Shown piece after piece: positions 769 to 20,000 of a stretch of 64,000 nucleotides of DNA (positions are counted from its first letter, which is position 1; every line of letters begins with the position of its first letter). A model generated the notes under the pieces. It searched no databases, was not told where the DNA came from, and saw nothing but the letters and a program-made list of their open reading frames with translations. Source of the stretch: a virus (lineage: Duplodnaviria; Caudoviricetes); IMG/VR virus record IMGVR_UViG_3300042431_000223, positions 1 to 64,000 of that record. The stretch is one strand, 5' to 3'. The position numbers and the translations under genes were made by a program.

Positions 769-949
769 GTTTAAGTGTAGATAAAGAATCTACCCTACTG
801 AGGAAACTTTCGTTGCGTTTCTCCATAGAGTCCATGTACGACATAAACTTCTCTTCACTACCGCTACTTAAACTTTGTCTTTCCCATAACAAAAAAACTA
901 TTGTGATTAGTAGTAGCCCTATAACAATAACTTCAATCTTGTTTTTCAT
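629..949 (-). CDS. i-spanin-like protein (N-terminal TM anchor, periplasmic coiled coil)
   Basis: IEVIVIGLLLITIVFLLW TM followed by an amphipathic helix; immediately downstream of the holin. Confidence 0.55.
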   Translation of the reverse strand: MKNKIEVIVIGLLLITIVFLLWERQSLSSGSEEKFMSYMDSMEKRNESFLSRVDSLSTLKHEQFSYYEKINLKYDTIQIALDTMPDIDGTKYLLTISRQLTAKGVE

Positions 950-1352: not shown

Positions 1353-1391
1353 TTAACGGCCTATACCTATACCTATACCGATACCAATCAT
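1353..1391 (-). other. 12-codon mini-ORF MIGIGIGIGIGR*, possibly a relic N-terminus or a coupling peptide
   Basis: Its ATG overlaps the upstream stop (TAATG, 1393-1389). Its TAA (1355-1353) directly abuts, in frame, the holin ATG (1352). Contains a (CCTATA)3 repeat at 1360-1377. Confidence 0.5.
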
Positions 1392-1693
1392 TACTTGTAA
1401 GCAATTACACTACCTGAAGAGATAGCAAAACCAGTAATCACTCCTCCAGGAAGAAATGCTCCTTGCTTGAAGGTAATAGTACTCATACCATTGTTAGCCA
1501 ACTCAGAAACACCATTGACAAGAAATTCTGTGAATACAGTATCTTCTTGTACTACTAGTGCATTGTACCGTACGTTTGTTACAGTACCTGTGCTGTGGCG
1601 TTTAAAGCCTCCAGAGCCTACAGAAAGTCCTGTGTGTGCTGAAATCGCTCTTAAGCGTTTTGCTTGTTCGTTTACTTGTTGAAAATTATCCAT
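1391..1693 (-). CDS. Small beta-rich hypothetical protein, probably virion-associated
   Basis: 100 aa, Gly/Thr/Val-rich, ending SSGSVIAYK; first gene after the 1732-1761 promoter. Confidence 0.65.
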   Translation of the reverse strand: MDNFQQVNEQAKRLRAISAHTGLSVGSGGFKRHSTGTVTNVRYNALVVQEDTVFTEFLVNGVSELANNGMSTITFKQGAFLPGGVITGFAISSGSVIAYK

Positions 1694-1731
1694 TTTTTTT
1701 CGTTATTAAAACCGACTTGCGTCCGACATTA

Positions 1732-1761
1732 CAAATTTAACTTTAATTGTTCTTTTGTCAA
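1732..1761 (-). promoter_or_regulatory. Bacteroidota sigma70-type promoter for the lysis cassette
   Basis: Minus strand TTG(1761-1759)-N19-TAAATTTG(1739-1732), an exact match to the Flavobacterium-type consensus; intergenic. Confidence 0.8.
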
Positions 1762-1770
1762 GTATAAAAA

Positions 1771-4700
1771 TTAATCTATTGGTAATTGAGAAGTCTGTTC
1801 TTTTATTCTTGCGTCCTCTTCTTCTTTGTACGCCTTACGGATATCTGCATCTTTCTGTCCTATTTGTATTCCTCTTAGCTGTAAGTAAAGAGATGCTCTT
1901 GCTTCATTTTCATACAACTCTTGGCTTTTTTGAAATTTAGGCTTAGAGTATCCTGTAACACTTTCTGTCATAGAGTCAAAGAAATCTGATCTTGATTTAC
2001 CTATTGCTGCGGCTGCTCTCTTATTTTCTTCGTAGTTTCTTAAGTAAGCGTAACCTTCTTTTGAACTAAGTAATCTGTCTCTTTCTGCAGACAACAAAGA
2101 TACCTCTTGGAGGATTTTAGCTATTTCATCATTGTCAGCTAAGTTCATTTTATAGTTTAAAAGTGTTTCATTCGGAACTGCTGTTACTTTATCTTTTTTA
2201 GGATTGTAGTCATATCTTAAAATATTTTTTTCTACAGCCATAAGATCTTCTGCACTTAGTCTATTAAAGTTTTTCTCTAACTCATCTAATCTAGAAAGAA
2301 TAGTGTTCATTTGTCCGACAGGATTAGTTAATCCAGGAGCAGGAGTAAACGAAACTTGTTGAATTAGTTTAGTACCAAAGTCCATACTCTTAATACCAAC
2401 TTCAACACCACTCACTTTACTTAATCCTACTGCCCAAGCACTCTCACCTTCGTAGGCTTTAACTCTTGCATGTGGAAGAACATAACCGTATCCATCTCCG
2501 CTAATCTCTGCATAGGGTTCATCAAAGATATCTCCAAAGGTACCTTTACCTTCATACCATCTCTTAGCATCTCTTGGAATTGTTCCTATTGTTTTACCTA
2601 TTAAACCATAGCCGTCTAAGATTTTATCGATAGCATTTATTTGTTGTCCAAATAAAGCTGTGTAACCTACTCGAAACGCTTTAGAACCTAGACCCTCTTT
2701 TTCGTAACTCTTCTTTAATGGGTCAGTTTTAAACTTATTATACTGGATTAAAGGAGAATATACTGGGTTTAATGTACCTGCATATTCATTAAATGAACCA
2801 AGAAGAAGTATTGCTAATAAGTACTTTTCCCAATCTTGTTCATCATCGTCACCTGCTCCTTTTAGTGCAGCCATAGCAACATTAGCAAAGTAGTAAGAAA
2901 GCGTATACATAATAGTAGAAGCACCCATGTGTTGTATTACTCTGCTTGTAGCTTCTTTTTCTCTTTCACTCCATCTGTAATCCATAGACAGACTCTTTCC
3001 TTTTGTGTTTAATCCTAGTACACTACGACGAAGTGCTCCCATAAATACACCGTATGAACCTTCATCAAGTCTACCTGTAGTTACAGAGAACTTCTTACCT
3101 CCGTATAAGTTAGCTGCTTGTGGCCAAAACCAAGATTTCATAGTAAAGATAAGTTTCATCCAAACTATACTTTCATAATGTGCTCTACCTCTTCTGAAAT
3201 AGTTACCTTGAGTTGATGTATACAATTGGAAGACTTGGTCCCTTACATAGTTTTCTATCTGACGTAGTTTTTCTATTTTTTCTCCAATAGCTTTTTCTTC
3301 AGCTTTAATCTTCGCACCAAACTTAACATCAATCTCTTTGCTTAACTGTACTTGTTGTACTGGTTTTAACTTTTTGTAATCTGTTACATTATTCTTAAGG
3401 AGGTAATCAGCTATAAATTCATTTCTTTGTGTAACTAACTCGTTTAAACGTGCTCTGCTTATTCCAAGAACTCCATCTTTAGGAACAAGTACACCATCGA
3501 CATAATCATAAGCGTCTTTTAATTTTATCTGGTATCCAGGAGGAGTGTTAGGTCCTGTAAAATCTACATAAGTTTTAGCCATTATACCTTCATAAACTCC
3601 TAATGTAGATATGGCTTCGTTAGAAGAAAACCACTGAGCATTAAAATTATCTGCGTTTAGATATCTAGTTACAAATCCTGAATTGATAGAACGGTATAAG
3701 TTAGTAGGATCTGCTAAAGGAATTGCTCTAAAGTAGATTAGTTGAGCTAAATAAGGACTTAGTTTATCTATACCTTGCTCAAGTCCAATCAACTCTGATC
3801 TATGCTTTGCAGCTCTTGCCATACCCATAAGCATCTCTTGTTTACTTAAACCAAACTTGGATGAGTTACCTGTAGCATTAAGAATGTTTGCAACAACATT
3901 TTTAGGCATACGTAATGGGTTATATCTTAATACAAACTTTTGAAATCTATTAGTGATGTGGTTAATTGCTCTATTTACAACTCGTCCTATTGCACTGTTT
4001 CCTCCACCTCGTAAGGTTGCACCGTAAAAAAACTTTTCTATCTGGTCATCTATTTGGTCTAAGATAAGTTCTTTTTGAGTTGTGTTTCCTCCTGATTTAA
4101 ATTTATTCCAAACCGCTCTTATTTTACTTGTATCTTGAGCAGGCACTTCTTGAGCTTTTTCAGCAAAAGAGTCTCTCAACGCAAATATAGTAGGTAAGGC
4201 TTTTTGTAGTCCTTTAAACTCTGCTGTGTACGTAGAGAAAGCTGCAAGTGCTTGAAGAATGTTATCAGTAGAATCAATTGCCGACAAGGGTTCTTTGTAT
4301 CTTGTTTTAATCAGACGAACATTTTTACCTCTACCCTTTATTTGAGATTCTTTACGAGACTGTAGAATATCTTCTTCAATCTCTTCATCTCCCATACCTG
4401 GAACGTTGGCCTTTAAAAAAAGCTTTAAAGAACTAAATGCAGAGTAAAGTTTATAAAGAGGTCTTCTATAATCTGAAACTTCTTCCTTGTTGTCTTTAGT
4501 TACGTTAGGCATTACGTAACCTTTTAATCTCTGTCCTACTGGAAGCATACGTTGGTCGTCCTCATAGATATCTAAAATATCCTGCATGATAGACTTTTCT
4601 TCGTCGTCTAACTTATCGTAATCTTGGTTTACATACTTGCTATCTTTTGCATCTTTTCTTGGTCTTGCTTGTCCCGAGAATTTGTAGTTAGGATTTTTGT

Positions 4701-7700
4701 ACTCAGATCTAATACGAGGAGTTGACCAATCAAAACTAGGACTATCACGATTTATATACGTTTCATCGTTAGGTATAGTCTTTCTCCAAATATAGATAGG
4801 ACGAATCTCTGTAACTGTTCTTGTTCCAAAATCCCCATCCTTTACCTCATACGTAATAGCAATATGATTATCATTATACCAGTCTGTTTTTTTGACTCTA
4901 TTGTTTAACTCAATCTCAGTTAATAGGTTATTAAACTTATCTATGATAGCTTGTCTATCACTTTCTTGTGGAGGATAGTCTTCTCTATTTCTTCCTACAA
5001 AGAAATCGCCCTCAAGAAAGTTCTTAGAACTAAGAAGGGCGTCAAAGTAAGGCTCAAACGATTCTGGATTTGCTAAAAACAAATCTGCAAGGTCACTAGC
5101 TTTTTTATTGATTTGATTTCTTTCGTCCTGAGTCAACCTAGAGCGTAACTTGTCCTTAACAACTCTTATAGTTTCTCCGTAGTAAGGAGTAGTTACTTTA
5201 GATTGAAGAGAGTATAAACTTTTGAACAATCCATTTAACGCAGCTTGGTCGGCTTCCGAAATAGTAGTGCTCTCTTTAACTTCTTTCTTTAAGTCTTCTA
5301 TAGATTGCTCTATGTCTTTGATAGTCTTTCCTAATCCTGGATTAATTAAGTTACCTTGTATTGTTCCGTCTGAGTCTCTAAAGCCACGTACAGCACTAAA
5401 CAATCTTTCGTACTTCTCAGTAACTTCAGGATTACTATTATACTTAGACAGAATTGCTTTTATTTGCTCTGTAATGTTTTGTTGTTTTTCGAAGAACTGA
5501 GGTTTAATCTCAACTCTTGTGTTTGCTTCTAACCATTCCTGTTGTTTTTTAGTTTCTACTGCTAGTTGATGTTTCTTTTCACTAACTAAAGCTTGAAAAC
5601 TTTCTATACGGTTATAGTCGTTAGCTGCTTGAGCTAAGTCTATTTGGTCATTAAGTTCACTGATTTGAGCTTTGAGGTTTGAAATTGTTTTTTCAAATCT
5701 GTCTTTGATTTGAGTAAACTTAGTTAGTGCATCTTCGCCAATTACAAACTCAATTACATCTAACTCTTTTCTTGCTTTGTTATAAGCTAAGATAGATTCT
5801 GCAATCTGTCTTTCTTTACTTCCTACTGGTTTTTCTGTTCCATCCTCATTAAATATTGAACCTAGTCTTACGTAATCACGTCTTAACTTGGCTCTCATTT
5901 CTCTTACTGTAGGATTCTTTTCTGATGCGCTTCCTTGTACAGGGTTAGTAATCTCTGCGTCTAAATCGTCATCTCCAAATACACTACTATAAAGTTCTAT
6001 TTCTTTTAAGATTTCAGCACGAGCATTACGAGCATCATCAGTAAGAAGTTTTTCTGCCGTGTAATACTCATCTACAAATTCACGCTCTGCGTAATCCTCA
6101 ATGAATGTAGTTAAGTTTAGTTCTGCTTTATCTATTCTATCTTGGTCTCCAGATTTTCTGGCTAGAATAAGTTCATTTGTTAAGTCACCTAAATCATTTT
6201 GAAACTCAGCTTCCAACATAGGGGTGTTGTATACTTTCTGAGTAATAATTGTAACCTTACCGTTCTTGTCGTAATACTTAACAGGAACTAATCTAAAGAA
6301 TCCTTGAAACTTGTCCCTAGTATTAGAAGACTTAATACTAAAAGTACCTTTAGCACTTTGTAGTATACTTCTTCCAATTCCTTTTTTCTTGTTTCTTGTT
6401 TCTATTCTTTTTTGTATTTCACGAATCTTTGCGTCTTTCTTAAGACTTTCGTTAGTAGCAGCAACAACATGGTCATTAATAAAAGCGTTTATAATATCAG
6501 GTATTACAACTCCTGAATGTCCTCCTACATTTATATAACGACTAAATATTGTCTCAGCTCCCATAGCTTGATCGGTAGCAGAAGTAAGTAATCTTATTAT
6601 ATTTTCAGTAGTTGGAGTAAATGAAAGTGCTTTGTTAATATCAGCTATCTGCTTTTTAGTTTCCTCAACAAGTTTTTTGTTCCCAATAGTTTCAAATCTA
6701 GCTAACTCTTCCTCAAGAAAAGCTAATTCTTTTCTAATAGGATGATTAGGATCTTTCATTTGATCTGCAATCAACTGAAATTTTGCAGCAACTACTTCAG
6801 CTACTGGACTAATTACTTCTTTTTTAGCTATGCTTCTTAAGTTATTAAGATTTTCTGTTGCTTTTTGTAGATTTTCTTTATAGGTAGCAATGTAACTGTC
6901 TATTGTGAGAATTTCTTTTTGGAGCGCTAATCTTTTTTCTGCAATTTGTTCTTGTCTTTCTTTAGTAAGTCCTTTAAAACTATCTTCTAACAACTGCTGT
7001 ACTAAGTTTGTTTCTAAACTTTGAGCTTGGTCTAACAGAGTTTCTGCTAAAATAATTGCACTATTAAGTTTCTTTAAATAAACTTCAGGTTCATAATGAG
7101 ATTTACCTTGACTCAAAGTTTTAATGTCACTAACAAGTTTGTTGGTAAATGTCTTTAACTCTTCCGTGTATTGTAATGTGGCTACAAGACTATCGGCGAT
7201 ATCAGCTGTCGAAATCTTACCGAAGGTATCTTGCAAAGCATTAATAGCTCTTAACTCAAGAGTTTCTTTACCTGCTATTTCCCCAAGATTTTGTCTTAGT
7301 TGATTCCAAATACCACTATCAACATTTGAGTCGATGTAATCATAAAATCCTGTAAGTCGAGCAGAAATTTCAGACTTACTTTGTCTTTGTGCAAAGGGTT
7401 GACTAAATCGAATTTGATTTTCTGCAAGACTGTCTGGAAAGTCTTGTAGAGTCATTAAGTAATCAAAGTAATCATTAAGAGTTTCTTGTACTTGATCAAA
7501 CATGGTTTTACCCATATCCTTAAACAAGTACCGATTAAAGAAAGACTTAATGCTATTCCACATCCTATCTAAGAAACTAAACTGAGACTTTCTTTGGTAC
7601 TCAGCTTGTTGCATACGTTCTCTAAAATATGGGTTAGATAAAAACTCTGCTAAAAACTCTTCTATGTTTTTAAAGCCATACTCGTTTTGTAACTCTGGGT

Positions 7701-8598
7701 AATATGCTTGGTACGTAGTAAAGTACTTTTCCATCTCTTGTACAAATTGTACCTCCTGAGCATTTCTAGGATTGTTTAAGATAGATAAAGTAAATGCGTG
7801 AATAGTCTCGTGAATAATCTCTCTGGCTAAAAACTTATTATTAACTGGAGTAAAAGTAGACTTAGCAATGTGTATTGTATTTGTCTTTGGATCATAAAAT
7901 GATCTTTGATACTCATCAGTCAAATAGATGTCATCAAACAACGCTAACTTTAGTGTAGGGTTTGTTTCCATTAACGGAGACAACTTTCTAAGTATCTCTT
8001 GTTGAAATGGTTCTAGCTCTGCATTGTTTGCTAAGTTATCAATTAACTCTTTTAAAGTTGCATTGTTAAAATCTGCTACAGAGTCTATAACAAATTTAGG
8101 AAACTTAAATTTTTCTAATAAATCCTTACTTATTGGCTGTTGCCTTTTCTCTCCTACCTTTGGCTTTACTGCTAATTGATATCCTCCTGGTACGCTGATA
8201 ACTTCGTGGTCTATCATATCAAACTTAGGATTCATTTGAATCTCAAAGCCGATGTTATCAAAACCCTGTGGTGTCTCTAGAGTTACTCCTAAGTAACCCA
8301 ATCCACCTAACTCATCAATTTGTTCTGCTGCTTGTAATTGTTCTTCAGGTAAGTTTAATCTAAGATGTCTATTGATTTCTCGGATCTTAGGTTCCCCTGC
8401 ATAGTTTATTTTATTACTTGCTCCTATGTGGGGCTTAGTCCAGTCAAAACCTAAATTAGCTTTAAACGTATCTGAGGTAATAGCCTCATAAATTTTCTTA
8501 CCTTCCTCTTGTGGGTACAAAGAAGTAAGTTGATAATATGCAGAACTAACTACATCTTTCCCATTTACAGGGGATTTTATTTTCGCAATACAAGACAT
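1771..8598 (-). CDS. Giant ejected cargo protein (2275 aa) with an N-terminal zincin-like metallopeptidase domain
   Basis: REIIHETIHAF (HExxH, 7798-7812) plus downstream KNIEEFLAEF. Long coiled coils and a C-terminal hydrophobic segment. Third of three giant genes typical of crAss-like phages. Its only Cys is residue 3. Confidence 0.85.
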   Translation of the reverse strand: MSCIAKIKSPVNGKDVVSSAYYQLTSLYPQEEGKKIYEAITSDTFKANLGFDWTKPHIGASNKINYAGEPKIREINRHLRLNLPEEQLQAAEQIDELGGLGYLGVTLETPQGFDNIGFEIQMNPKFDMIDHEVISVPGGYQLAVKPKVGEKRQQPISKDLLEKFKFPKFVIDSVADFNNATLKELIDNLANNAELEPFQQEILRKLSPLMETNPTLKLALFDDIYLTDEYQRSFYDPKTNTIHIAKSTFTPVNNKFLAREIIHETIHAFTLSILNNPRNAQEVQFVQEMEKYFTTYQAYYPELQNEYGFKNIEEFLAEFLSNPYFRERMQQAEYQRKSQFSFLDRMWNSIKSFFNRYLFKDMGKTMFDQVQETLNDYFDYLMTLQDFPDSLAENQIRFSQPFAQRQSKSEISARLTGFYDYIDSNVDSGIWNQLRQNLGEIAGKETLELRAINALQDTFGKISTADIADSLVATLQYTEELKTFTNKLVSDIKTLSQGKSHYEPEVYLKKLNSAIILAETLLDQAQSLETNLVQQLLEDSFKGLTKERQEQIAEKRLALQKEILTIDSYIATYKENLQKATENLNNLRSIAKKEVISPVAEVVAAKFQLIADQMKDPNHPIRKELAFLEEELARFETIGNKKLVEETKKQIADINKALSFTPTTENIIRLLTSATDQAMGAETIFSRYINVGGHSGVVIPDIINAFINDHVVAATNESLKKDAKIREIQKRIETRNKKKGIGRSILQSAKGTFSIKSSNTRDKFQGFFRLVPVKYYDKNGKVTIITQKVYNTPMLEAEFQNDLGDLTNELILARKSGDQDRIDKAELNLTTFIEDYAEREFVDEYYTAEKLLTDDARNARAEILKEIELYSSVFGDDDLDAEITNPVQGSASEKNPTVREMRAKLRRDYVRLGSIFNEDGTEKPVGSKERQIAESILAYNKARKELDVIEFVIGEDALTKFTQIKDRFEKTISNLKAQISELNDQIDLAQAANDYNRIESFQALVSEKKHQLAVETKKQQEWLEANTRVEIKPQFFEKQQNITEQIKAILSKYNSNPEVTEKYERLFSAVRGFRDSDGTIQGNLINPGLGKTIKDIEQSIEDLKKEVKESTTISEADQAALNGLFKSLYSLQSKVTTPYYGETIRVVKDKLRSRLTQDERNQINKKASDLADLFLANPESFEPYFDALLSSKNFLEGDFFVGRNREDYPPQESDRQAIIDKFNNLLTEIELNNRVKKTDWYNDNHIAITYEVKDGDFGTRTVTEIRPIYIWRKTIPNDETYINRDSPSFDWSTPRIRSEYKNPNYKFSGQARPRKDAKDSKYVNQDYDKLDDEEKSIMQDILDIYEDDQRMLPVGQRLKGYVMPNVTKDNKEEVSDYRRPLYKLYSAFSSLKLFLKANVPGMGDEEIEEDILQSRKESQIKGRGKNVRLIKTRYKEPLSAIDSTDNILQALAAFSTYTAEFKGLQKALPTIFALRDSFAEKAQEVPAQDTSKIRAVWNKFKSGGNTTQKELILDQIDDQIEKFFYGATLRGGGNSAIGRVVNRAINHITNRFQKFVLRYNPLRMPKNVVANILNATGNSSKFGLSKQEMLMGMARAAKHRSELIGLEQGIDKLSPYLAQLIYFRAIPLADPTNLYRSINSGFVTRYLNADNFNAQWFSSNEAISTLGVYEGIMAKTYVDFTGPNTPPGYQIKLKDAYDYVDGVLVPKDGVLGISRARLNELVTQRNEFIADYLLKNNVTDYKKLKPVQQVQLSKEIDVKFGAKIKAEEKAIGEKIEKLRQIENYVRDQVFQLYTSTQGNYFRRGRAHYESIVWMKLIFTMKSWFWPQAANLYGGKKFSVTTGRLDEGSYGVFMGALRRSVLGLNTKGKSLSMDYRWSEREKEATSRVIQHMGASTIMYTLSYYFANVAMAALKGAGDDDEQDWEKYLLAILLLGSFNEYAGTLNPVYSPLIQYNKFKTDPLKKSYEKEGLGSKAFRVGYTALFGQQINAIDKILDGYGLIGKTIGTIPRDAKRWYEGKGTFGDIFDEPYAEISGDGYGYVLPHARVKAYEGESAWAVGLSKVSGVEVGIKSMDFGTKLIQQVSFTPAPGLTNPVGQMNTILSRLDELEKNFNRLSAEDLMAVEKNILRYDYNPKKDKVTAVPNETLLNYKMNLADNDEIAKILQEVSLLSAERDRLLSSKEGYAYLRNYEENKRAAAAIGKSRSDFFDSMTESVTGYSKPKFQKSQELYENEARASLYLQLRGIQIGQKDADIRKAYKEEEDARIKEQTSQLPID

Positions 8599-8640: not shown

Positions 8641-11600
8641 TTATAATCCAAGAGAAAGTTGACAACTTACTTCGGTAAAGTTTAATGGACCCATGTTACC
8701 TTTATCATTTCCTTTATCAAGTCCGTTATCTACCTCAGGTGCTTTATTATCAGGAGGAGTAAGAGTAGGACCACTTGGAGGATCTGGAGTAACAGGAGGT
8801 TCATTGTTAAACATTTCATCTGCTAAAGAATTTGAATCCATCTTGGGAGTCCATCTAGAATATCCTGGAAGAACTTCTTCTTGATATCCTTTAAGTTTTA
8901 AATACTTCGCTATTAGCTCGTCAGAAAGATTACCTTTAGCATACTGATTGCCTACACGGAAAGATGCCCCTGCTTGCACAGCAAGTTCCAATAAAGGTTT
9001 GTACTTGTTAGTTAAAGTCTCTTTGATTTGAGCTTCAGTAACTCCTCTAAATAAACCGCTACCAGAAACCATCACAACATCACTAGCGCTGTACTTACCT
9101 GTATTAGCTTTGTTTCCCCACGCCTCTCTGTATTTATTGGTTGAACTTACTGTTGCCTGACCAGATTGGAATCCAATAAACTGTGTAGATTCAGCAGCCA
9201 TCTGTATATCTTTTGCTGCATTACCTGCCATATCAGTAGGCTTAACTCCTGCTAGTATTAATGGATTTGTCTGTTGAGGTTTTGTTGAAGTTGCACCTAA
9301 AGGATTTGTTGGCATTTCTTGAGTCAAAGGCATTACTCTTCTCATTGTAATAGTTACTCTGTATGAACCAGCTTCATAGTTCTTTCCGTCAATTTGTGTT
9401 GTAAGAGCAGGTAAAAAACTATCTTGGGGTTTAGGAAATGTTCTATGAAAAACTCCTCTATTTACTCCATTAACTCCAAATACATAAGCTGTACCTGCTT
9501 GTAAATTTAGTTGTTTAGGATCACCGTCTCTTGACTCAATTGAAAAGTTACCAGTACCTCCAAGATTAACTCCAATAACAGGATAACCTAAAGCAGAACT
9601 ACTTTCATCTACATCATTGTGAGAACTAATAAAAGTATCTGCTTCATATAAATTAATAATAGCTCCATCATAATAAGTCATATCTACTCCTGATGCTTTT
9701 TGCATCAACTCTTTAAATCTAGGAGTAATAGGAGCTAGGGCTTGTCCGTTTATTGACTCGGTATAATAACCATATTTAGTTTTATTTGCAGGACTAATAA
9801 CGTCTGGGATATTCATAGCTTGTCGACCAGTATTGTTAGACTTATAATCCCATCTTAAGCCTAGTCCAATCATTTTACTTGCAGATGCACCTTTATTAGT
9901 TTTAGCTGCTTGGCTTTCTAAATAAGGTTTTAAATAGTCAAATAATTCTAACTGTTCTTCTTTAGTAAGCGCACCTTGGTTTACATAGATGCCTTCTTTT
10001 ACTTCAGTTCCTTTTGGCGTAACACTAGTAGATGGTTGAGTAGAAACAACAGGTTTAACCTCTGTTGGTTTTTCTCCAGTTACTGCTTCACGTACTTTAT
10101 TTTCTAAAATCTGAACTTTACCTACTAGCTCTGGGTTTAAGATTCCCATCATATCAATACTTATTGGAGAGTAAGCAGATAGGAAAGATGGTAATGGTAA
10201 AAGCAAACTATCAGAACTGTTGACTTTTATAGACGTATTAAATCCAACTAAACTTAAGTACCTTCCAAATGTTTCTGGATTATTCTTTTTCATATCCATC
10301 AACTTGTTGTAAGCATCTGTAGTTAAATCTATGTAAGCTTCAAAAGGAACCACAGTAGAAACTTTACCTTGGTTAAAGTGTGCTCCGTTCTGCATAAACG
10401 AACCGAGAGCTAAGTCTTTAAAAAAGTTTCTTACTTTCTCATCAGCATGATTCATTCCTTCTAGAAACGCTTCTCTGTACTCTTTAGTGTACTCAGAAAT
10501 TTCAATATTCCTTATACCAAATACAACCTCACGAGACAAAGGATTAAGAGATTCTTCATCTATATAAAGATTACTAAATAAAAAGTTTGTTCTTAAGTCA
10601 GGGTTAGTTGCTAGTTCTTGATAACGGTCTAACATATTTCCTGATATTCCTTTTATGAACTGTCCTTTCTCACCTCTATAGTATTCTAAGTACGATGTTC
10701 CATCAGGGCGATTTCCAAACATTGCAACGTAAGTATATAAGATGTTATTCTTATACGTATCAATTGCTTTTCTCTTCTCTTCATCTTCAGTAATGTCTGC
10801 ATACTCTAACATTTTACCTAAACGTTCATGAACCTCTGGTGAATCTGTAAGAGGGAATATCTGAGTCATTACATCTAACGTAAAAGAACCTACGTTAAAT
10901 TGCGCTAATGCACTGTCCTTAAAGATAAACTCAATTGCTTCAGGATTAAATGCATCCTTTAGTCCTTCTTTCTTTTGCACTAGTTCTGTACTTTGAAAAG
11001 TAGTTCTGTAGTTTGCCGTGTTAAAGTCAGCTACACTAGTCAACTCACGTAAGCTTTCTTGCTGTGCAATAACTACTCCAAACTGTAACAAATAAGCTAT
11101 GTTGCGATAAGCTATGTCCTCAGAAGTAGCTAGTTGTTTGGTAGGGTCAAAGTTAGTTAAGTGTTCTTGGATTTTTGGATTTTGTATCAACAACTCTATA
11201 AACTGTTGTACAGACTCTTTCCCTTTTACTTTATTCTCTTTCTGTCCCTGTTGTAAATTTACTATTGCACTTTTTAATTCTATGTCTTTAATAGGATCTA
11301 TAGAAGCCAACAATAATTTTTTGATAGAAGAATACTTACTAGTGAATCTTTTGTTAATCTTGCTGTCAATCTTAGATCTATTTCCCATCTCAAGAACTAA
11401 CTGTACAGGACTAGATTTGATAAAGGCAATTACATCTTTTATAGGCGTTCCTGCAAGAATCATAGCATGAGCTAAAGGACTTGTCTCTTGGTTCATCCCT
11501 AAAAGAATAATCCAGTCTTCTTTAGCAATATCTACGTGGCCGTTAATAAATTCACTTAGTACCTTAGATATACGATTACCATCTTGTCCTTTCTTACCTC

Positions 11601-14600
11601 CTAAAGAAATATTACCGTCAGCATCTCTATTAGCTTTTAGGAAGTACATATTAAGTAGAGGGGATTTGTACTTAAGATTAGCTAACTGAAATTCTTTCTG
11701 CATAGTGTTAATCTTAGCATCGATACCTAAAGCATCTTTAGACAAGATATTCTCTGCATAAATCCTCCAAGAGGTCATAGGATTAAATACATTGGTAGTA
11801 GAGATAGTAACTCCGTTTCCTGCGTACTCGGTTAGAACGTTATTGTTGTTAGGAGCAACTAAGTAATCATACAACTGACCTATAGACAAAATCTCTTTTA
11901 AGGTAGATACTAAGTTATTAGTTATTCCTTTTTTGTAGTTTTCAATCTCGTTAATCTTTTGATTAATCTCTGCAAGATCACTTCGCACTTGTGAAATAAT
12001 TCCTAGAGACTTAAAATCTACAGATTGATTAGTTGCTTTTAAATCAGCAATTGCTCGCGATCTTGTTTCTACTTTTTCAGATAGTTTGTCTAAACCTGCA
12101 GCTTTATCTTCTGGAGTAATTTCGGACCTATCTAACAACTCATTAAGAGCCTTAACACTTTTATCAACTTCTTTATTAAGTTTTTTAAGTTCTTCCTTTA
12201 AATCTTTTCTACGAGCATAGGCTGGATTAGTTTCCAACTCTTCTCTCAGTAATCTACTTATAGAAACTAAACGTTGCTTTTCTCGTTTTAAGTCGCGTTG
12301 CTCTTCTAACTTACTTTTGTAGACTTCAAGATTAAACTCTTTACTTACTATCTTACCATTCTCATCATAAGCTGTTTCGAAGAAAGTTAACTTATCAATG
12401 TCATAGTCACCTCCAGACTTAACTACAATCTGCGCAGGAAGAATCATAACGGCCCCTGAAGACTCAGGTAAGAACTCTTTTATGATTACATGCTCCATAG
12501 ACTGAAAGCCTTGTACAGGAATACGTACTCCTGCCATAGTAATTAAGTCTTTATGTTTTTCTCTCCATAGTGCAGCTAAAGGACTATTAGATTTTAGAAT
12601 TTCGTTGAGTGTTTGTAGATTTCCAACAGGTTTATCTTTATAAGTTAGCTTAAGTAACCCTGCATGTTTTTCTGGATTAAATCCAATCTTTACCTCCATA
12701 GGTAAAGTCTTACCTGTAGCAGGATCAAATCGGTAGAACTGTAGTTCATTAGCACCGTACTCAGCAAGTTGTTCTGCTGTAGGTTTAGCAAATCTTCTTC
12801 GCTCAAACCCTACTCCTGCAACTTGGATATAACTTTCTCCATGAACCTTTTGATTAATAACTTTGTTATTGATGAAGTTCAGTAGAGTAGATTCAATTTG
12901 ACTTCTGTCTTTAATAGCGTCTAAAGGATATTTAAGATTTCCACTCTCATCTATTTGAATAAATTTACGTAAGGATTCTGGAACCTCATTCTTTTCAAAC
13001 TCCTTAGTAATATAACTAGCGAGTTGTAATTGATTTAAATTTGTTATGTTACCTTGAGCATCTCTAGTTATTCCTAACTTTCTTTCTAGTTTAACTTGTT
13101 CAAAAGCAACCATATCTTTAACGGTCTTTTTGAATGTGTCGTATAAATTAGATACTTGTGCTTGAGTTTCTTCACTAAAGTCCTCAGACAGTTGACCAAA
13201 CTCATAGAAATCTCCAAACACAAGTTTCATCATCTGTGTAGATAGAGTACTTGTTTCTTTAAATTTAGGAGCTTGATATTGTTGCTGCCTTAAGTTCTGT
13301 AGATGTATTGAAGTTACATTAGCATTTGACAATGCATCGTTAACTACTTTTATCTTACCATCAGGACTATCTACCTCTTTGTAGAAATCAAGCATTTCTC
13401 CAAAGTCTGCCATCTTAGAACCAGACTTAAAGGTATAGTAGTCTATTTGGTTTTTGTACATTAACTCTAGTTGTTTCTCTAATTGCTTTCCAAGTACAGC
13501 ACTGGGAACTATTGGAATTAACGAGTACTTATGTAATGCAATAAGTTTAGGATCTTCTACAATAGACCCATAATGCCCTAATTTTAATGGAGGAAAAGGA
13601 ACTATTCCCTGTTTGTTTATTAGACTGTTTCTTTCTTCTATTAACTCTTCAGCATTAGTTGGATTAGTTTTTAACTCAGAACCAATCTGAGCTATTCTAA
13701 CTTGATCGTTGTACGCAGCTTCTTGTTCGTCACTCCAGCCTTCAGTAGAGATTAAATAGTTTCTATAAAAGTCAAGAGTAATTAAACCTTGAGCATTGCC
13801 TTCTTCGTCACTTTTCTTTACATATGCGCTGTATTCAAACTTATCACTTTTTGCTAGTGAGTCCCATAAACCACTATCGTAGACTTCCTTGTAAGTAGCA
13901 AATTCTTCGTCAGTAAAAGTAAGTACGTCATTATAAACTACAGTTCTTACAACGGGGCTAAATTTGTGTTCTACTCCCGTCATTGCAATACTAATTGCAT
14001 CTTGGTTTATGTCTTCTTCAAAAAATTCCTCTAAAGCACTATCCCAGAAAGGAGGAATACCAGGAGAAGAAGTAAAAGGAATACGTTTAAATACCTCGCG
14101 TGCATCCTTTGCTAGTTTGTTAAAGTTACCCATGTTACCAACAAACATTTTCATAAACTCAACGTTGTGTATGAAACCGTTCTTAAGGTAAGTTTCTGCT
14201 AAATATTCAATGTTTTCTTTAGTTACTTTTGGCTTAACTCCTTTAGGCAAAAGCTGGGTATTAATAAACTTAAGTTTGTTTAAACTTGTTACAGCCTCAG
14301 ATAATCTTTCTGCTTGTGAAGCTATCTGGCCTTTAGAGTTTACAGGAAAAGATAAAGTCTTAACTAATTCTTTTGCTAGTTTCTTAGCCTCCTGACTAAA
14401 ATATGCATCTAATCTATCTGGTAAAATTTGAACAGCTTGGTCATATAGTCTTTGTATATCTTCTTTAGTCTGTGCGTCTTTTACAGCATTAGCTATTTCA
14501 GGAATTATAGAAGAAAAAATAAATAAGTTCTTACCTTGTTTATGGTACGTAGTATTCGCTCCTTGAGGATTCTCCATTAAATCTAGAACTCTACTAAACT

Positions 14601-17019
14601 CACCAGCTAGGTAGTTAGTCATAGTTTCTAGAAAAACTTTTCTAGCAGCTAAGTCTGCTTCGTCTCCTCCTATGCCTTCTAACTTACTGGGTACAATAGG
14701 TACGTATATCTTTTCTCCTAATACAGGATTACTAAAAGACATACTAAAAGAACTAGACTTATCACCAAAACGAATGTTTTCCATTTCGGTAGATTGAAAA
14801 AATCCTAAAAAGTCTTGAAGTACTTTATCTCCTGGATGTAAGTCTGTAGTAGTTTGTCCTACTTTACTTTCAAACTTTTTAATCTCTAATCCGTTATAAT
14901 CCCTTACTTCAATATCTACAGGCAAACCAAACTTCTTCCTCTTAGTGTACGAATTTAATGGGTTCGCTTCAATCTCTGCAAGTGTAGTAGGCAATCCAAA
15001 CAATCTATTTAACCAAAGAGAACCTATAACGTCAGGATTTCTTCTATAATCAAATCTTTCAAATCCTGGAGTATTAATTAACTCTTCGTAGTTTTTAGCC
15101 TCATTAATAGCTTTAGTAGTTTGAGTTAAGTAAAACCAAGGACCTCTTGTAAACTTCTTTTTGTCATCTGCTGTTAAGTACGAACTTGGTCTAAGTTCAA
15201 TATCAAAAGTACTTATGTATTCAATTAGTCGTTTAGCTTCTGTTTCTTTTTTAGCTAAGAATCCTTTAAAAGTATTTGCATCTCGGATTCCTTTTCCAGC
15301 AAGCTTATTCTGTGTAACAAAACTGTTTATAACTTCTTGTACGTCTTCAGAAAAGTTTTGCCCATCAGGAAATACTTGATTGTCTGAGTTAGCTATGTAC
15401 GTAAGAGGGCCTTTAATTACTATAGTAGGTTTTCCGTTTTTAGCTAATGCATTATTTATTTGATTAGTTAAAGTAAGTTTAAAGAAAACATTAGAGTAAG
15501 GCTTAAAGTTTTCTACAAACACCTCAATTGTCTTATCGATGTTTGATGGTAAAAAGTAATCTTTGTTTGAAAGTCCTGCACCAAGAGCATTAAGAAACTC
15601 AGAAAATTTATTAATGTAAAAGTCTTTCTTGTTTCCTGTAAACAATGCTTGTATTTTTTTTGCACTTTCTGCAGGAGTGTTTCTGCTAGACAAAGCATCA
15701 ATAACTGTACTATTACTTCCTCCGAACAAAGGAGTAAAATCAGAAACAAATTTAGCTAGGTTAAACTCAACTCCATTTTCTCCTTGGATTGCGTAATCTT
15801 GATTAAATGCAAAGTATTGTTTATCTAGCTGATTAAATAAATTTTTAATATTTCTATATCCTTTGATTTGTTGTGTTACTATTCCTAGGTTTTTTTCATT
15901 GTTAATGTTTACTGAGACGGCAATTGTTTCGGGATTACTAAAAATTCTCTTTAGTCCCATTGCAAACATAATTTGCTTAATAGTTTTCAAACTTCCTTTT
16001 ACTCTAGGATCAGGAAGACGTTTTATCAATAAGTTAAATTGAGGATGAGTTATTGCTAAGTCCTTAATTGCATCATACTGTTTTGTATAATCGGTAATTC
16101 CCGATAAAGCCGTACTAATTAAGTTCCAGTTTCTTTGGAAGTCTCCCGACTTAGGTAAGCCAAGTAATCCTCCTTTGATTAAAACTCTTTCATCGCTGTT
16201 ATAGGGTCTATTTGCATCAAAGTTAAACTCACCTGTAGCAGCTCTTCTGTATGAAGGTAAAGAAGTAACTAAACCTAAGATACGTTTACTTGATCTTTGT
16301 TTTTGTCCTTTGTTAGTCCAATCTTCTCCTTCTCCAATATCTGCGGCTCCTTCATCTACACCTACAACAGTATCTTGACTTAAGTACCATTCTTTAAATA
16401 ACTCAAAGTTATCTGCTATTTCAGTAAGAGCTTTAATTTGTTTTACTTGACTAGGTAAAACATTCTTAGGATCTAGTTGACTAACTAATGTATTTTTTTG
16501 GTCTAAAATAGCTTTTTGTGCTTCTGCCCAACTGTTAGTACTTCCCAACAAGTATTCAAAGGTTTCAAAAATCTCTTGTGACTCAGCTTCAGTAAAATGG
16601 ACTTCAACAGGAATACCCCCAATATTTGCATTATAAAAGTTGATTGCTCTGTTTGTAGGAATATTTACACTTTGAATTTTTTGAGATAAGATATCATCTT
16701 GGATACGTTGACGTTGCTCTATATAATCTAGTACTTGATTTAAGTTATAATTACCTGAATCGTTCTTATGGTACTTAGAAGTAAAGTCAGCAAAGAAAGT
16801 ATCAGCTATTATCTTTAGAGCCTCTATCCTATTTCCTTTAGTTATAGGATGAGCCATTAGCTCTTGGTATAATGGATTGTCGATTACTTCGTCTCCAACT
16901 TTAATCTTATCTAAAGGTTGTTCATTGTTTTTATTCCAAACAAATATTATTGAAGATGGCTTCAAGAAACCTTCGTATTCCTTTTCGTAAGGCGTACCTT
17001 TTATACTACAAGCGTTCAT
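8641..17019 (-). CDS. Virion-packaged DNA-dependent RNA polymerase (crAss-like, phi14:2 gp66-type) with C-terminal AlkB-like dioxygenase and an additional alpha/beta domain
   Basis: Catalytic KSGGDYDIDKL motif (DxDxD, 12394-12408) preceded by RIPVQGFQSM; 2792 aa; central of three giant genes. AlkB motifs HND (9613-9621), H (9445-9447) and RVTITMR. Confidence 0.92.
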   Translation of the reverse strand: MNACSIKGTPYEKEYEGFLKPSSIIFVWNKNNEQPLDKIKVGDEVIDNPLYQELMAHPITKGNRIEALKIIADTFFADFTSKYHKNDSGNYNLNQVLDYIEQRQRIQDDILSQKIQSVNIPTNRAINFYNANIGGIPVEVHFTEAESQEIFETFEYLLGSTNSWAEAQKAILDQKNTLVSQLDPKNVLPSQVKQIKALTEIADNFELFKEWYLSQDTVVGVDEGAADIGEGEDWTNKGQKQRSSKRILGLVTSLPSYRRAATGEFNFDANRPYNSDERVLIKGGLLGLPKSGDFQRNWNLISTALSGITDYTKQYDAIKDLAITHPQFNLLIKRLPDPRVKGSLKTIKQIMFAMGLKRIFSNPETIAVSVNINNEKNLGIVTQQIKGYRNIKNLFNQLDKQYFAFNQDYAIQGENGVEFNLAKFVSDFTPLFGGSNSTVIDALSSRNTPAESAKKIQALFTGNKKDFYINKFSEFLNALGAGLSNKDYFLPSNIDKTIEVFVENFKPYSNVFFKLTLTNQINNALAKNGKPTIVIKGPLTYIANSDNQVFPDGQNFSEDVQEVINSFVTQNKLAGKGIRDANTFKGFLAKKETEAKRLIEYISTFDIELRPSSYLTADDKKKFTRGPWFYLTQTTKAINEAKNYEELINTPGFERFDYRRNPDVIGSLWLNRLFGLPTTLAEIEANPLNSYTKRKKFGLPVDIEVRDYNGLEIKKFESKVGQTTTDLHPGDKVLQDFLGFFQSTEMENIRFGDKSSSFSMSFSNPVLGEKIYVPIVPSKLEGIGGDEADLAARKVFLETMTNYLAGEFSRVLDLMENPQGANTTYHKQGKNLFIFSSIIPEIANAVKDAQTKEDIQRLYDQAVQILPDRLDAYFSQEAKKLAKELVKTLSFPVNSKGQIASQAERLSEAVTSLNKLKFINTQLLPKGVKPKVTKENIEYLAETYLKNGFIHNVEFMKMFVGNMGNFNKLAKDAREVFKRIPFTSSPGIPPFWDSALEEFFEEDINQDAISIAMTGVEHKFSPVVRTVVYNDVLTFTDEEFATYKEVYDSGLWDSLAKSDKFEYSAYVKKSDEEGNAQGLITLDFYRNYLISTEGWSDEQEAAYNDQVRIAQIGSELKTNPTNAEELIEERNSLINKQGIVPFPPLKLGHYGSIVEDPKLIALHKYSLIPIVPSAVLGKQLEKQLELMYKNQIDYYTFKSGSKMADFGEMLDFYKEVDSPDGKIKVVNDALSNANVTSIHLQNLRQQQYQAPKFKETSTLSTQMMKLVFGDFYEFGQLSEDFSEETQAQVSNLYDTFKKTVKDMVAFEQVKLERKLGITRDAQGNITNLNQLQLASYITKEFEKNEVPESLRKFIQIDESGNLKYPLDAIKDRSQIESTLLNFINNKVINQKVHGESYIQVAGVGFERRRFAKPTAEQLAEYGANELQFYRFDPATGKTLPMEVKIGFNPEKHAGLLKLTYKDKPVGNLQTLNEILKSNSPLAALWREKHKDLITMAGVRIPVQGFQSMEHVIIKEFLPESSGAVMILPAQIVVKSGGDYDIDKLTFFETAYDENGKIVSKEFNLEVYKSKLEEQRDLKREKQRLVSISRLLREELETNPAYARRKDLKEELKKLNKEVDKSVKALNELLDRSEITPEDKAAGLDKLSEKVETRSRAIADLKATNQSVDFKSLGIISQVRSDLAEINQKINEIENYKKGITNNLVSTLKEILSIGQLYDYLVAPNNNNVLTEYAGNGVTISTTNVFNPMTSWRIYAENILSKDALGIDAKINTMQKEFQLANLKYKSPLLNMYFLKANRDADGNISLGGKKGQDGNRISKVLSEFINGHVDIAKEDWIILLGMNQETSPLAHAMILAGTPIKDVIAFIKSSPVQLVLEMGNRSKIDSKINKRFTSKYSSIKKLLLASIDPIKDIELKSAIVNLQQGQKENKVKGKESVQQFIELLIQNPKIQEHLTNFDPTKQLATSEDIAYRNIAYLLQFGVVIAQQESLRELTSVADFNTANYRTTFQSTELVQKKEGLKDAFNPEAIEFIFKDSALAQFNVGSFTLDVMTQIFPLTDSPEVHERLGKMLEYADITEDEEKRKAIDTYKNNILYTYVAMFGNRPDGTSYLEYYRGEKGQFIKGISGNMLDRYQELATNPDLRTNFLFSNLYIDEESLNPLSREVVFGIRNIEISEYTKEYREAFLEGMNHADEKVRNFFKDLALGSFMQNGAHFNQGKVSTVVPFEAYIDLTTDAYNKLMDMKKNNPETFGRYLSLVGFNTSIKVNSSDSLLLPLPSFLSAYSPISIDMMGILNPELVGKVQILENKVREAVTGEKPTEVKPVVSTQPSTSVTPKGTEVKEGIYVNQGALTKEEQLELFDYLKPYLESQAAKTNKGASASKMIGLGLRWDYKSNNTGRQAMNIPDVISPANKTKYGYYTESINGQALAPITPRFKELMQKASGVDMTYYDGAIINLYEADTFISSHNDVDESSSALGYPVIGVNLGGTGNFSIESRDGDPKQLNLQAGTAYVFGVNGVNRGVFHRTFPKPQDSFLPALTTQIDGKNYEAGSYRVTITMRRVMPLTQEMPTNPLGATSTKPQQTNPLILAGVKPTDMAGNAAKDIQMAAESTQFIGFQSGQATVSSTNKYREAWGNKANTGKYSASDVVMVSGSGLFRGVTEAQIKETLTNKYKPLLELAVQAGASFRVGNQYAKGNLSDELIAKYLKLKGYQEEVLPGYSRWTPKMDSNSLADEMFNNEPPVTPDPPSGPTLTPPDNKAPEVDNGLDKGNDKGNMGPLNFTEVSCQLSLGL

Positions 17020-20000
17020 TAGTTACAGGGTGGTGGGTTTTTAGTTTCTGGGGTGTGATCTCTCTCATCTAAATCTTTTGTATCACCTAAAGTTAGACCT
17101 AGCGAATTTAATATAAGTAACGCATTTTTAGCTTCACTGTCAGTAAATTCTTTGTTAGATTCTTTAATTTGATTAATCTGATTTTCACTAATATTTATAG
17201 GCTGACTTGCTTTAGGATTAGCTGTCCGAAGGTCTAACTGAGTCATAACGTTCTTGTCGTATGTCAGCTTAATAACTGCATCAGATATGTCACTTTTGTT
17301 CTGAGGTAATACAGGAACTCGGTTTGCAGCTTGCGTCAACATGTTAATTGTGATAACGCCATCATTTACTTCGTACTGAGAAGCGTAAGCATAGATATTA
17401 ATACTAACTACAGGCAAGTCAAAGTCTTCTGATAGTATAGCATAGGTAGTCTGTTGACTTCCCCATTTCTTAATGTTTGAAGGTATTTTATCTGTAGAGA
17501 TATAAAGACCATTCTTAAAGTGCTGTTCATTTCTAAACTTCTTATTTTTAAAGTCGATAATATGAACTCCTCCATCAGCATCTACTGCTACAATATCCAT
17601 AGCACCTGCTACACCAGCATAACCAGTTGCTAGTTTTTCTGCATCAGTAAACTTACGGTAAACTACAAGTCCTTCGGTAAATAGCTGATATCCGTTGCGG
17701 TTTAGTTCTTTCTTAAATTCCTGAAGTTCTTTTACAGCTGCGTCAAACTGTTCTTGAGTTAGTTCTAGTTTATAACCTTTACCGTCTCTAAGAACTTTAC
17801 CCATACCTTCTGCTTCTTTAATGTACTCTTCTCTAGATTTTAAAGTACGCCCTCCAAGAACGTCACGGCCAATAATATCAAGTAAGTTACCGACAGCAGC
17901 ACCTAACTCCATTAACTCTTTATTTTCTGTAGGCTCTCCAGTTTCAACTCCATTAGTATCTGCGTCTCCTAAAGTTCTCTTAGTAAATCCAGATTGACGC
18001 TCATACTTCTCCCCATCAATAATGTAACCTACTTTATCAGGATCAGGTATAGTTTTAGCTTTAGCAACTAATTTGTTAAGCGATTCTATTGTTTTGTTTT
18101 GGCTATCCGCATTAACAATAACTCTAGTTACTTTTTCTGACTTTTTAGTTTCTACAGGAGAAAGACTTTCTGTTACAGGAATCATTTCATCTGTAAAGAA
18201 TTCGTAGACAAGACTTCGTGTTATTGTTCCATCTTTATCCTGCTTCTTATCAACTCTAGGTCTTCCATTTAATTGAACTCCTTTATTAACTCTCTCCCCT
18301 TCTTTTACTTTTCCTCTTAAACCGTCCATTGCTTTTTGTTGTGAAGTAACTTCACCTTTACCTTGTTTACTTGTAGGTAAATAAACTAGCAAAGCTTGAT
18401 TACCATTATTTGTTTTATTACCCTCACTATCAAACTTTTGAACACGTCCCTCAGTATCAACTGCTGTAAATGTCAAAGCATTTAAATCTTTAAAGTCAAT
18501 ACCTTCTGAAGCTATTATAGGGAAAGTTAAAACTGTTTCAGGATCTTTAACATCAAGGAAAGGAAACCATTGTTTATCGAACATTTCATTTCCTTTACTA
18601 TCAAGCATAGGATTTCCTTCTGCGTCAAGAATAGGAGTTTTCTTCAAAAATAAAATCCTATCATTCTTAGAAAGAACTTCTACGTCTCTTACAACTCTTC
18701 CGTCTTTTAAATTAATTTGAGCTACTGTCTTAGGTTCCCATTCTCCTTTTGCATTTTTCCTTGCTTTGTTAAGAGCAAAGATTTCAGCTTGAGTTGCATT
18801 TTTATTGATTTGAGTTTGTTGATTAACGTCTACTCGAGAAACATTTCCAATCATCTGAGAGTCAAACATATAGTTCAATGCAGATGCTTTCATAAATCCT
18901 TCTGGAAACAATCCCATAAACTCTAATTTAAGCTGAGCTAAACGTTCAGGAGTTGGCTTAGATTTAACTTCGTTAAAGATAGTTTCCATCTGCTGTAAAG
19001 TAGATTCACCAAGAACTTGTTCAATAACAGTAAACAAATCAACAATACTAGTATTAGTAGTTCTATGTTCTTTATCTATAGTTCTAGTTATTTTCTCTTG
19101 TACCCCAGCATGTTTTGCGTCCTTGTGATTTTCGCTATTTGGTATAAATACAGGACTAGTTTCCATTAACTGAGTTTGATTGTTAACTTGACTTACCTGC
19201 TCTTCATTCTTAGGAGGCTCAGGATTAGTTTCAGCATTAGATGCTTTGTAATTTACTTCAGTTGTACCTACGTTAAAGTCGGTATCAAAAGGAGACACAG
19301 GGGCTTCTATGATTGTTTTAGCTTTTTTGCTTTTCTTTGCTCTAGCGTCTTTTTTCTTTTTAGCAATTAAATCTCTTATACTACTATACCTAGGATCAGT
19401 ATCAGGATTCATAGATCCGTAGAAAGTAGTTGGAGATTTAGATGTAACTCCTCCTATCCCTCCTGGGTACTGTAGTATGAAATCTATAAGATCTTGTGGG
19501 CTTATCTCTTGACCTCCATTTAAATCAGTTGCACGTTGTGCTATTCTATCTAAACTAAATCCTTCTCCTTTCTTACCAAGATAGCCAAAGATAATTGCTT
19601 TACCTTCTCTACCCTGTAAGTTTGCTTTATCTGAAAATGCAACAAAAGAATCTCTAGTTACTCGCATCTCATCTAAAGCTTGGGCAATGGGAGGCAAGTC
19701 TCCTACACCAGATAAGAAAGCTTCTTTCTCCATTTGATACTCCATGTACAGCTGTTCGTCAGCAATAGCATCTTGTAACTCTTCTTCCCTACGTCGAGCG
19801 TCTTCTTCTCTTTGTATTCTTTCTTGCTCTTCTCTAGCTGCTAATTCTTCTGGAGTTAACCTAGGTTGATTCTCAAGTAAATTTAATTGTCTCCCTCCAG
19901 CACTTCTAGGTTTTTCTATAGCAGCTACATCATCTGTAGAAGCAGCAGTAGATTCTTCTAAATCAACTATTGGATCTTCTATAATAGGCTCTACAACTCT

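Follow-up and report, generated by a model that had tools for sequence, protein, structure and literature searches.

A predicted AlkB-type dioxygenase forms an exchangeable cassette on the virion-type RNA polymerase of a crAss-like phage

The window analysed here is a stretch of 64,000 nucleotides (nt) from IMGVR_UViG_3300042431_000223, a 75-kb IMG/VR virus entry rated 64% complete by CheckV. On its minus strand it encodes a giant protein in which a predicted domain of the AlkB family of 2-oxoglutarate/Fe(II) dioxygenases is joined to a virion-type RNA polymerase (RNAP). Using Pfam and PHROGs, we detected in the window the Crassvirus major capsid protein (48107-49636), the muzzle protein (crAss_MUZ, 33632-39178), the portal protein and the large terminase, and we therefore assign the record to a crAss-like phage, which was found in lake water. 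Phages of this kind are among the most abundant viruses known. The open reading frame (ORF) in question (8641-17019, minus strand; protein P0001) is a single open frame of 2792 codons plus a stop and encodes the polymerase followed by a C-terminal array of added domains.

The RNAP body, delimited by tblastn matches to crAss RNAPs and by the end points of the shortest relatives, covers residues 1 to about 2310 (10090-17019, minus strand). Residues about 1140-1603 match RNAP genes in 99 crAss-like phage records (tblastn, E down to 7e-19), several of which are annotated as "putative RNA polymerase" or "RNAP catalytic subunit". This part contains the catalytic motif DYDID (D1538-D1542; 12394-12408, minus strand), corresponding to 1361-DFDID-1365 of gp66 of phage phi14:2, in which every Asp is required for activity. 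A crAss-type DxDxD motif is present in 107 of the 121 AlkB-carrying giant proteins that we collected, P0001 included. With phi14:2 gp66 and with gp47/49/50 of crAss001, P0001 shares a non-glycine fourth residue in this motif, similar lengths around it, a gene position between giant genes after the structural block, and the crAss capsid, muzzle, portal and terminase genes as neighbours. Both marks of a crAss RNAP were thus found, namely the DxDxD motif in a giant protein with similarity to crAss RNAPs and a structural block followed by giant genes. The AlkB domain begins 805 residues past the motif, gp66 ends 815 residues past its own, and the shortest relatives of P0001 stop 770-800 residues past theirs; the polymerase body therefore appears complete before the added domains start. 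A phmmer search of the whole protein against PDB sequences gave no match. We conclude from these comparisons that the carrier is a crAss-type virion RNAP, and the claim of the preliminary description that the dioxygenase is fused to such an enzyme is borne out by the common reading frame, the tblastn matches and the DxDxD site.

The AlkB-type domain spans residues 2343-2560 (9340-9993, minus strand), as supported by Pfam, an AlphaFold2 model, Foldseek and VIA-align. All six motifs on which the preliminary description had based its AlkB assignment for positions 9335-9997 were recovered in the ORF (DGAIINLY at residue 2451, ISSHNDVDE at 2464, PVIGVNLG at 2480, GTAYVFG at 2509, RGVFHRT at 2521 and YRVTITMRR at 2553); they map to 9337-9669, inside that interval. 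The profile 2OG-FeII_Oxy_2 (PF13532) matched over its entire length (positions 1-194 of 194) with 51.9 bits, well above the cut-off of 31.2 (E 1.5e-13), and a six-frame search of the record with the same profile gave 57.4 bits (E 7.6e-17); a chance match of this strength is not to be expected. The AlphaFold2 model of the domain, built on 20 homologous modules (mean predicted local distance difference test, pLDDT, 92.8; predicted template modelling score, pTM, 0.90), folds as the double-stranded beta-helix expected of this family. Foldseek ranked E. coli AlkB structures first (E about 1e-11), and VIA-align superposed the model on E. coli AlkB with Z 22.6 and a root-mean-square deviation of 2.2 A over 193 of 207 residues, spanning AlkB residues 11-215. 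Rice ALKBH1 followed with Z 21.4, and human ABH2, ABH3, ALKBH5, 6 and 7 scored about 15-16. The near-whole fold is shared with E. coli AlkB (PDB 3khc, 3i3q, 2fd8) and plant ALKBH1 (5xoi, 5xeg) at about 22% identity, and the phage domain has a GLG-x-x-WD motif in common with ALKBH1.

The active site was mapped on a MAFFT alignment with E. coli AlkB from MG1655. The iron ligands H2467-x-D2469 (9613-9621, minus strand) correspond to E. coli H131 and D133, and the distal ligand H2525 (9445-9447, minus strand) to H187. After the H-x-D pair follow D2471 and E2472 (minus strand), the counterparts of the base-reading acidic pair D135 and E136. The RxxxxxR pair R2554 and R2560 (9340-9360, minus strand) matches R204 and R210, which bind 2-oxoglutarate, and T2558 matches T208; the N-x-Y pair N2456 and Y2458 (minus strand) matches the 2-oxoglutarate ligands N120 and Y122. 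The equivalents of N120, Y122, H131, D133, E136, H187, R204, T208 and R210 show no variation among the 104 homologous modules. The full HxD...H triad and RxxxxxR of the E. coli AlkB layout, as first described for this locus, are therefore all in place, and the domain is apparently an active, true AlkB-family enzyme, as judged from the alignment and the model. A counterpart of E. coli W69 had been considered at W2390; it was dropped since the alignment of the N-terminal half is unreliable.

In a phmmer search of 1.84 billion cluster representatives, the domain found only 209 relatives at E<=1e-3, nearly all of them giant phage proteins or fragments thereof, and it therefore appears to form a phage clade of its own. 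Searched against PDB at the same threshold, the family profile reaches only OsALKBH1. One distant free-standing case was found, a 304-aa ORF on a 391-kb contig (L053) with 28% identity. Grouped by their iron-site motif, the homologues fall into the subtypes HNDVDE, HSDLEE, HPDIDE and HTDTSE, which differ at the D135-equivalent; of the 104 modules, 93 have D there, 9 have E and 2 have S, and the subtypes may have different base preferences.

Past the RNAP body the order is linker 1, AlkB, linker 2, a domain that we call domain X, and a low-complexity tail. Compared with phi14:2 gp66, which stops at the end of the body, P0001 has about 480 more residues, made up of AlkB, domain X and the tail. 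Linker 1 (9994-10089, minus strand) is rich in Pro, Thr, Ser and Val and reads STQPSTSV, then TPKG; PKG stands directly ahead of the AlkB domain in 96 of the 121 homologues. Linker 2 (9271-9339, minus strand) contains TNPL twice. Domain X (residues 2584-2724; 8848-9270, minus strand) is a conserved addition of about 140 residues, recognized by its homology in other RNAPs: it shows 61-71% identity in three of them, where it lies either before or after AlkB. In some relatives it stands alone directly after the RNAP body. Its AlphaFold2 model (pLDDT 82) suggests a Rossmann-like alpha/beta fold. The domain has no Pfam match even at E 10 and no usable Atlas match, and the best scores in structure searches were E 0.03 with Foldseek and Z 5.4 with VIA-align, the latter under the tool's noise guide of 7-8. 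That Z-score was reached with methyltransferases and HAD phosphatases; we did not call domain X a methyltransferase.

The low-complexity tail (8644-8847, minus strand) ends in VSCQLSLGL, with Cys2786 at 8662-8664. A Cys in the last 12 residues is present in 118 of 120 AlkB-carrying giant proteins. Nearly all listed RNAP relatives also have a Cys at this distance from the end (tails ...SIC, ...KLC, ...SCEV and ...DPFKC), and in the window the Cys pattern occurs, besides the minus-strand site in this tail, at 17025-17027 and 8590-8592. The residue may serve in disulfide linking or as a packaging or ejection signal. A partial list of natural variants in the stretch from AlkB to domain X contains eight synonymous ones among ten, which points to selection, as does the high identity of the AlkB modules described below.

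The fusion is widespread in environmental sequences. A word-indexed search with the AlkB region returned 138 metagenomic clusters with proteins of 1.5-4.9 thousand residues at 49-82% identity. AlkB lies downstream of the DxDxD motif in 98 of the 121 giant proteins and upstream of it, N-terminal to the RNAP core, in three. In IMG/VR, 48 loci contain the module; module and motif share one open frame in 37 of these, and several of the remaining 11 are interrupted by contig ends. Short stand-alone AlkB matches are mostly gene fragments on contigs of 1-5 kb. Among 50,697 deposited phage genomes (INPHARED, including gut crAss and Cellulophaga phages), tblastn at E<=1e-3 found no copy of the domain, and a pattern scan of 185,579 prokaryote genomes (GTDB species) gave no confirmed relative of this AlkB subfamily. 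The arrays of the homologues also contain NADAR (14 of 120) and a RecD/PIF1-type helicase (17 of 120), and further domains co-occurring with AlkB in relatives are AAA_30/PIF1, DUF7831, HATPase_c, ART-PolyVal, Kinase-PolyVal and RNase H. JGI automatic annotation already labels several such proteins as AlkB.

Comparison of these proteins indicates that AlkB is an optional, self-contained cassette that is gained, lost and swapped at the linkers. Across 5356 protein pairs, mean identity was 69.6% in AlkB against 30.4% in the RNAP catalytic core; AlkB was the more similar part in 98% of the pairs, and the two identities were essentially uncorrelated (Spearman 0.08). The extremes point the same way: P0060 and P0109 have cores that are 94% identical and AlkB domains that are 51% identical, and P0085 and P0088 have cores at 22% and AlkB at 93% identity. 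Only about six of the 120 nearest relatives by RNAP core carry AlkB. In others the slot holds ART-PolyVal (P0279), NADAR (P0278) or an AAA_33/Zeta-toxin-like kinase (P0316), in P0274 and P0280 the RNAP body continues straight into domain X, and in several near relatives only the tail is present. The preliminary description had seen in the de-alkylase a working partner of the polymerase, and this idea is not supported in that form, as near-identical and closely related RNAPs lack AlkB or have unrelated modules in its place. What stands of that interpretation is the AlkB fold, the active site and the RNAP carrier; the domain itself is an optional cassette.

The exchange can be followed at the DNA level between P0001 and P0273. 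In blastn the P0273 gene aligns at 96.1% identity over gene nt 1-6993 and at 94.6% over nt 7753-8379 (the last 627 nt), and nothing between the two blocks can be aligned. The AlkB cassette so defined is 759 nt long (9268-10026, minus strand) and is replaced in P0273 by an unrelated 396 nt; the left breakpoint, at window position 10026, falls within linker 1. The 12-nt word CTACTAGTGTTA, which encodes the linker sequence STSV or TSV, lies at 10009-10020, at the left edge of the AlkB cassette, and in P0273 the same word marks the right edge of the alternative cassette (L056, about nt 7827-7838). In other proteins, linkers resembling STQPSTSV are found on both sides of AlkB. These few cases suggest exchange by recombination within the linkers, and CTACTAGTGTTA is a possible recombination site. 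The GC content along the ORF is uniform (0.31-0.39), and a recent foreign origin of the cassette is not apparent from it.

The replacement module of P0273 (L056 nt 7454-7849, residues about 2332-2463, about 120 aa) has counterparts with 53-98% identity in seven further giant proteins or pieces of such proteins and sometimes adjoins AlkB (P0064, P0050). By eye it resembled NADAR; Pfam gave no match and the idea was dropped. One low-depth soil-metagenome contig (run X20) skips 9252-10021, the 768-nt AlkB region, and has 426 other letters between the RNAP body and domain X.

Several known systems resemble this arrangement in part. E. coli AlkB, which shares the iron triad, the 2-oxoglutarate Arg pair, the N/Y pair and the D135/E136 equivalents, and ALKBH1 are free enzymes, whereas here the domain is part of a virion-type protein of 2792 aa; the phage domain is also about 20-40 residues longer, with the extra length in the N-terminal, lid-side half. 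Replicases of plant RNA viruses (Flexiviridae and others) are likewise polymerase polyproteins with an AlkB domain, which demethylates 1-methyladenine (m1A) and 3-methylcytosine (m3C) and prefers RNA and single-stranded DNA (PMC2553587, PMC544882). Such replicases appear among our structural matches, and no close sequence relationship of their AlkB to the phage domain was seen. The AlkB of plant RNA viruses is synthesized in the cell that they infect and protects a genome of RNA, whereas here a double-stranded DNA phage would have AlkB pre-packed on a DNA-dependent RNAP. Polyvalent proteins (Iyer et al. 2017, PMC5512222) are giant delivered proteins that likewise string together varied effector domains, and their name-giving ART-PolyVal and Kinase-PolyVal occur in the arrays of P0001 relatives. 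As in that class, several unrelated enzyme domains are found in one giant phage protein, in combinations that vary between close relatives; by analogy with crAss RNAP biology, the array would probably be delivered with the DNA into the recipient. The difference is that the carrier here is a crAss-type RNAP, presumably with two barrels, and the text of PMC5512222 has no mention of AlkB, dioxygenase, NADAR or crAss. The stand-alone AlkB of jumbo phages (PMC7824862) is phage-encoded and sporadic as well; it differs in being encoded by free genes expressed after infection. The literature that we searched contains no paper describing an AlkB or dioxygenase domain on a crAss-like phage or virion RNAP. 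AlkB, the crAss virion RNAP, polyvalent proteins and plant-virus AlkB are thus known as parts; their combination, its breadth and the cassette dynamics were not found there.

With moderate confidence we propose that the injected AlkB is a direct-reversal dealkylase that acts on single-stranded nucleic acid near the polymerase. The polymerase with its AlkB domain would travel inside the capsid, be threaded into the cell together with the DNA or before it, and refold there. The tethered AlkB would then load host Fe(II) and 2-oxoglutarate and oxidatively remove N-alkyl groups of the 1-methyladenine/3-methylcytosine type from the single-stranded nucleic acid close by, that is, from the melted phage template and from early transcripts in the making, at a time when no phage gene has yet been expressed. 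The lesions could stem from chemical damage to the drifting virion or be placed by the host. We infer packaging, injection, substrate and timing, the injection by analogy with phi14:2 and crAss001. In phi14:2, gp66 and the proteins encoded next to it are part of the virion, enter the host and carry out the transcription of early genes, and gp66 uses single-stranded or denatured DNA in vitro; in crAss001 the RNAP proteins are stored as capsid cargo and partly unfold for ejection. AlkB enzymes remove lesions of the m1A/m3C type and prefer single strands.

Several observations weigh against this proposal. AlkB is absent from most near RNAP relatives, so early transcription can do without it. Double-stranded DNA inside the capsid is not readily alkylated at N1 of adenine (N1-A) and N3 of cytosine (N3-C), which weakens a reading as pure repair of virion damage, and no host defence is known to us that places methyl groups on phage nucleic acid at these sites. 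The domain also misses the NCBIfam equivalog cut-offs for AlkB by a wide distance (TIGR00568, 33.9 against 231 bits; NF011930, 22.4 against 267 bits) and is classed here as an AlkB-family domain and not as an orthologue of bacterial AlkB. In addition, its presumed nucleotide-recognition lid contains about 20 extra residues, in a part where the alignment is unreliable. Given the low equivalog scores and the lid insert, the domain may act on another substrate than E. coli AlkB does.

A tentative alternative, to which we give clearly less credence than to template-proximal dealkylation, is that the injected AlkB serves counter-defence or host takeover as an eraser, stripping host-placed alkyl marks from phage DNA or RNA, or methyl marks from host tRNA, rRNA, mRNA or DNA. 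The cassette behaviour described above and slot neighbours typical of conflict systems make counter-defence a serious alternative: AlkB is sporadic even among near-identical RNAPs, whole cassettes are traded between distant backbones (cores 22% and AlkB 93%; cores 94% and AlkB 51%), the slot holds conflict-type modules in relatives (ART-PolyVal, NADAR and the AAA_33/Zeta-toxin-like kinase), and other AlkB carriers have Kinase-PolyVal and RNase H. The D135-equivalent, which in E. coli AlkB helps to set base preference, varies among the module subtypes; the Foldseek matches include two E. coli AlkB D135 mutants (PDB 4nii and 4nig). For the stand-alone AlkB of jumbo phages, Iyer et al. propose resetting of methyl marks and not DNA repair (PMC7824862). 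The 70% conservation of the module fits an eraser and a repair enzyme equally, because both would target a fixed chemical group. Against the eraser reading, no methyltransferase, other DNA-modification gene or related partner gene was found in the scanned parts of the 64%-complete record, and an anti-phage defence that methylates N1-A or N3-C is neither known to us nor surfaced in our literature searches. The three functions suggested in the preliminary description, namely template repair, RNA editing and erasure of defence marks, are indistinguishable by sequence data.

A more specific and rather improbable version is that the RNAP C-terminus is a linker-delimited exchange site for effectors of the first minutes, traded among environmental phages, at which AlkB would answer an undescribed base-alkylation defence in parallel to DarT and NADAR. 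Hosts or their chemical surroundings would then alkylate early RNA or single-stranded DNA of the phage and so hinder infection, and this would be why the AlkB cassette is widespread and highly conserved. NADAR reverses ADP-ribosylation of DNA bases and is a phage antidote against DarTG (PMC11543638, PMC11825919). If this version were true, it would point to a base-alkylation defence whose antidote occupies the same slot as NADAR in relatives.

We consider it unlikely that the domain acts on something other than nucleic acid, by hydroxylating protein as ALKBH4 and ALKBH7 do or by modifying a small molecule, or that its role is mainly structural or in packaging. Some members of the AlkB family do have protein substrates, one of them, ALKBH7, matches the model structurally (Z about 15), and the insert in the lid region is specific to this family. 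By a clear margin, however, the model comes closest to two enzymes of nucleic acid, E. coli AlkB (Z 22.6) and ALKBH1 (Z 21.4), as opposed to about 15; the aligned range of AlkB 11-215 takes in the lid, and the D135/E136 pair, which reads the exocyclic amine, is kept. A purely structural role sits poorly with the invariance of all cofactor ligands.

Still less probable is that AlkB is not delivered at all, either because it is removed by cleavage, at the latest while the protein is being packaged, or because the array acts at a late stage in the cell that produces the virions, for example by cleaning progeny DNA ahead of packaging. The long flexible linkers around AlkB could be protease sites, and proteolysis may take part in the activation of phi14:2 gp66. 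On the other side, the Cys-bearing tail is conserved C-terminal to the added domains in nearly all homologues, which suggests that the protein stays in one piece; three proteins have AlkB inside the chain, N-terminal to the RNAP core; and the phi14:2 RNAP gene is expressed in the middle or late phase, with a virion-bound product.

That assembly or gene calling wrongly joined two genes, a general risk of metagenomic contigs and nothing more here, can be practically dismissed, because the frame is continuous (no stop or frameshift), the same 4 kb including the RNAP-AlkB junction is present, with all sampled words, in at least 12 lake-water metagenome runs, a second-strain contig covers both module borders (9224-10041) at about 98% identity, and motif and AlkB recur in that order in one chain (98 of 121) and in one open frame (37 of 48 IMG/VR loci). 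Among the public runs listed as containing the 4-kb stretch there were no RNA runs.

In crAss-like phages the injected polymerase is the earliest phage function at work in the host. That a base-repair or base-erasing enzyme rides on it and is exchanged with ADP-ribose-related and kinase modules suggests that the polymerase is also a delivery vehicle for a variable toolkit. AlkB is the most conserved part of these very fast-evolving proteins, and its substrate must therefore be important for a large number of phages in freshwater and other environments. As a small, well-predicted and easily expressed domain, AlkB makes this substrate accessible to standard oligonucleotide assays, and P0001 and P0273, with DNA that is 96% identical with and without the AlkB cassette, provide a natural comparison pair.

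The RNAP gene is the middle one of three giant minus-strand ORFs downstream of the structural genes (2462, 2792 and 2275 aa), a layout that recurs in the relatives L003, L004 and L005; a PHROGs search with the three proteins gave no match. The upstream gene (17019-24407, minus strand; 2462 aa) has the position of the gp65/gp47-type RNAP-associated cargo, and the downstream gene (1771-8598, minus strand) encodes 2275 aa. The giant genes of phi14:2 (gp65/66/67) and crAss001 (gp47/49/50) are laid out alike and their products are virion cargo, by analogy with which the product of the upstream gene is probably present in the virion.

The large terminase (53538-55547, minus strand) has its nearest deposited relative in the cyanobacterial Leptolyngbya phage Lbo-JY46 (39% identity), a closer match than those to gut crAss and Cellulophaga phages (about 30%). 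A holin (Phage_holin_4_1; 933-1352, minus strand) and a fragment of a DNA/RNA non-specific endonuclease (Pfam Endonuclease_NS, E 1.2e-16; 2-382, minus strand) that is truncated by the window edge lie downstream of the giant genes. Past the window end, a protein of 604 aa (L054 2739-4553, minus strand) contains an F5/8 type C (discoidin) carbohydrate-binding domain.

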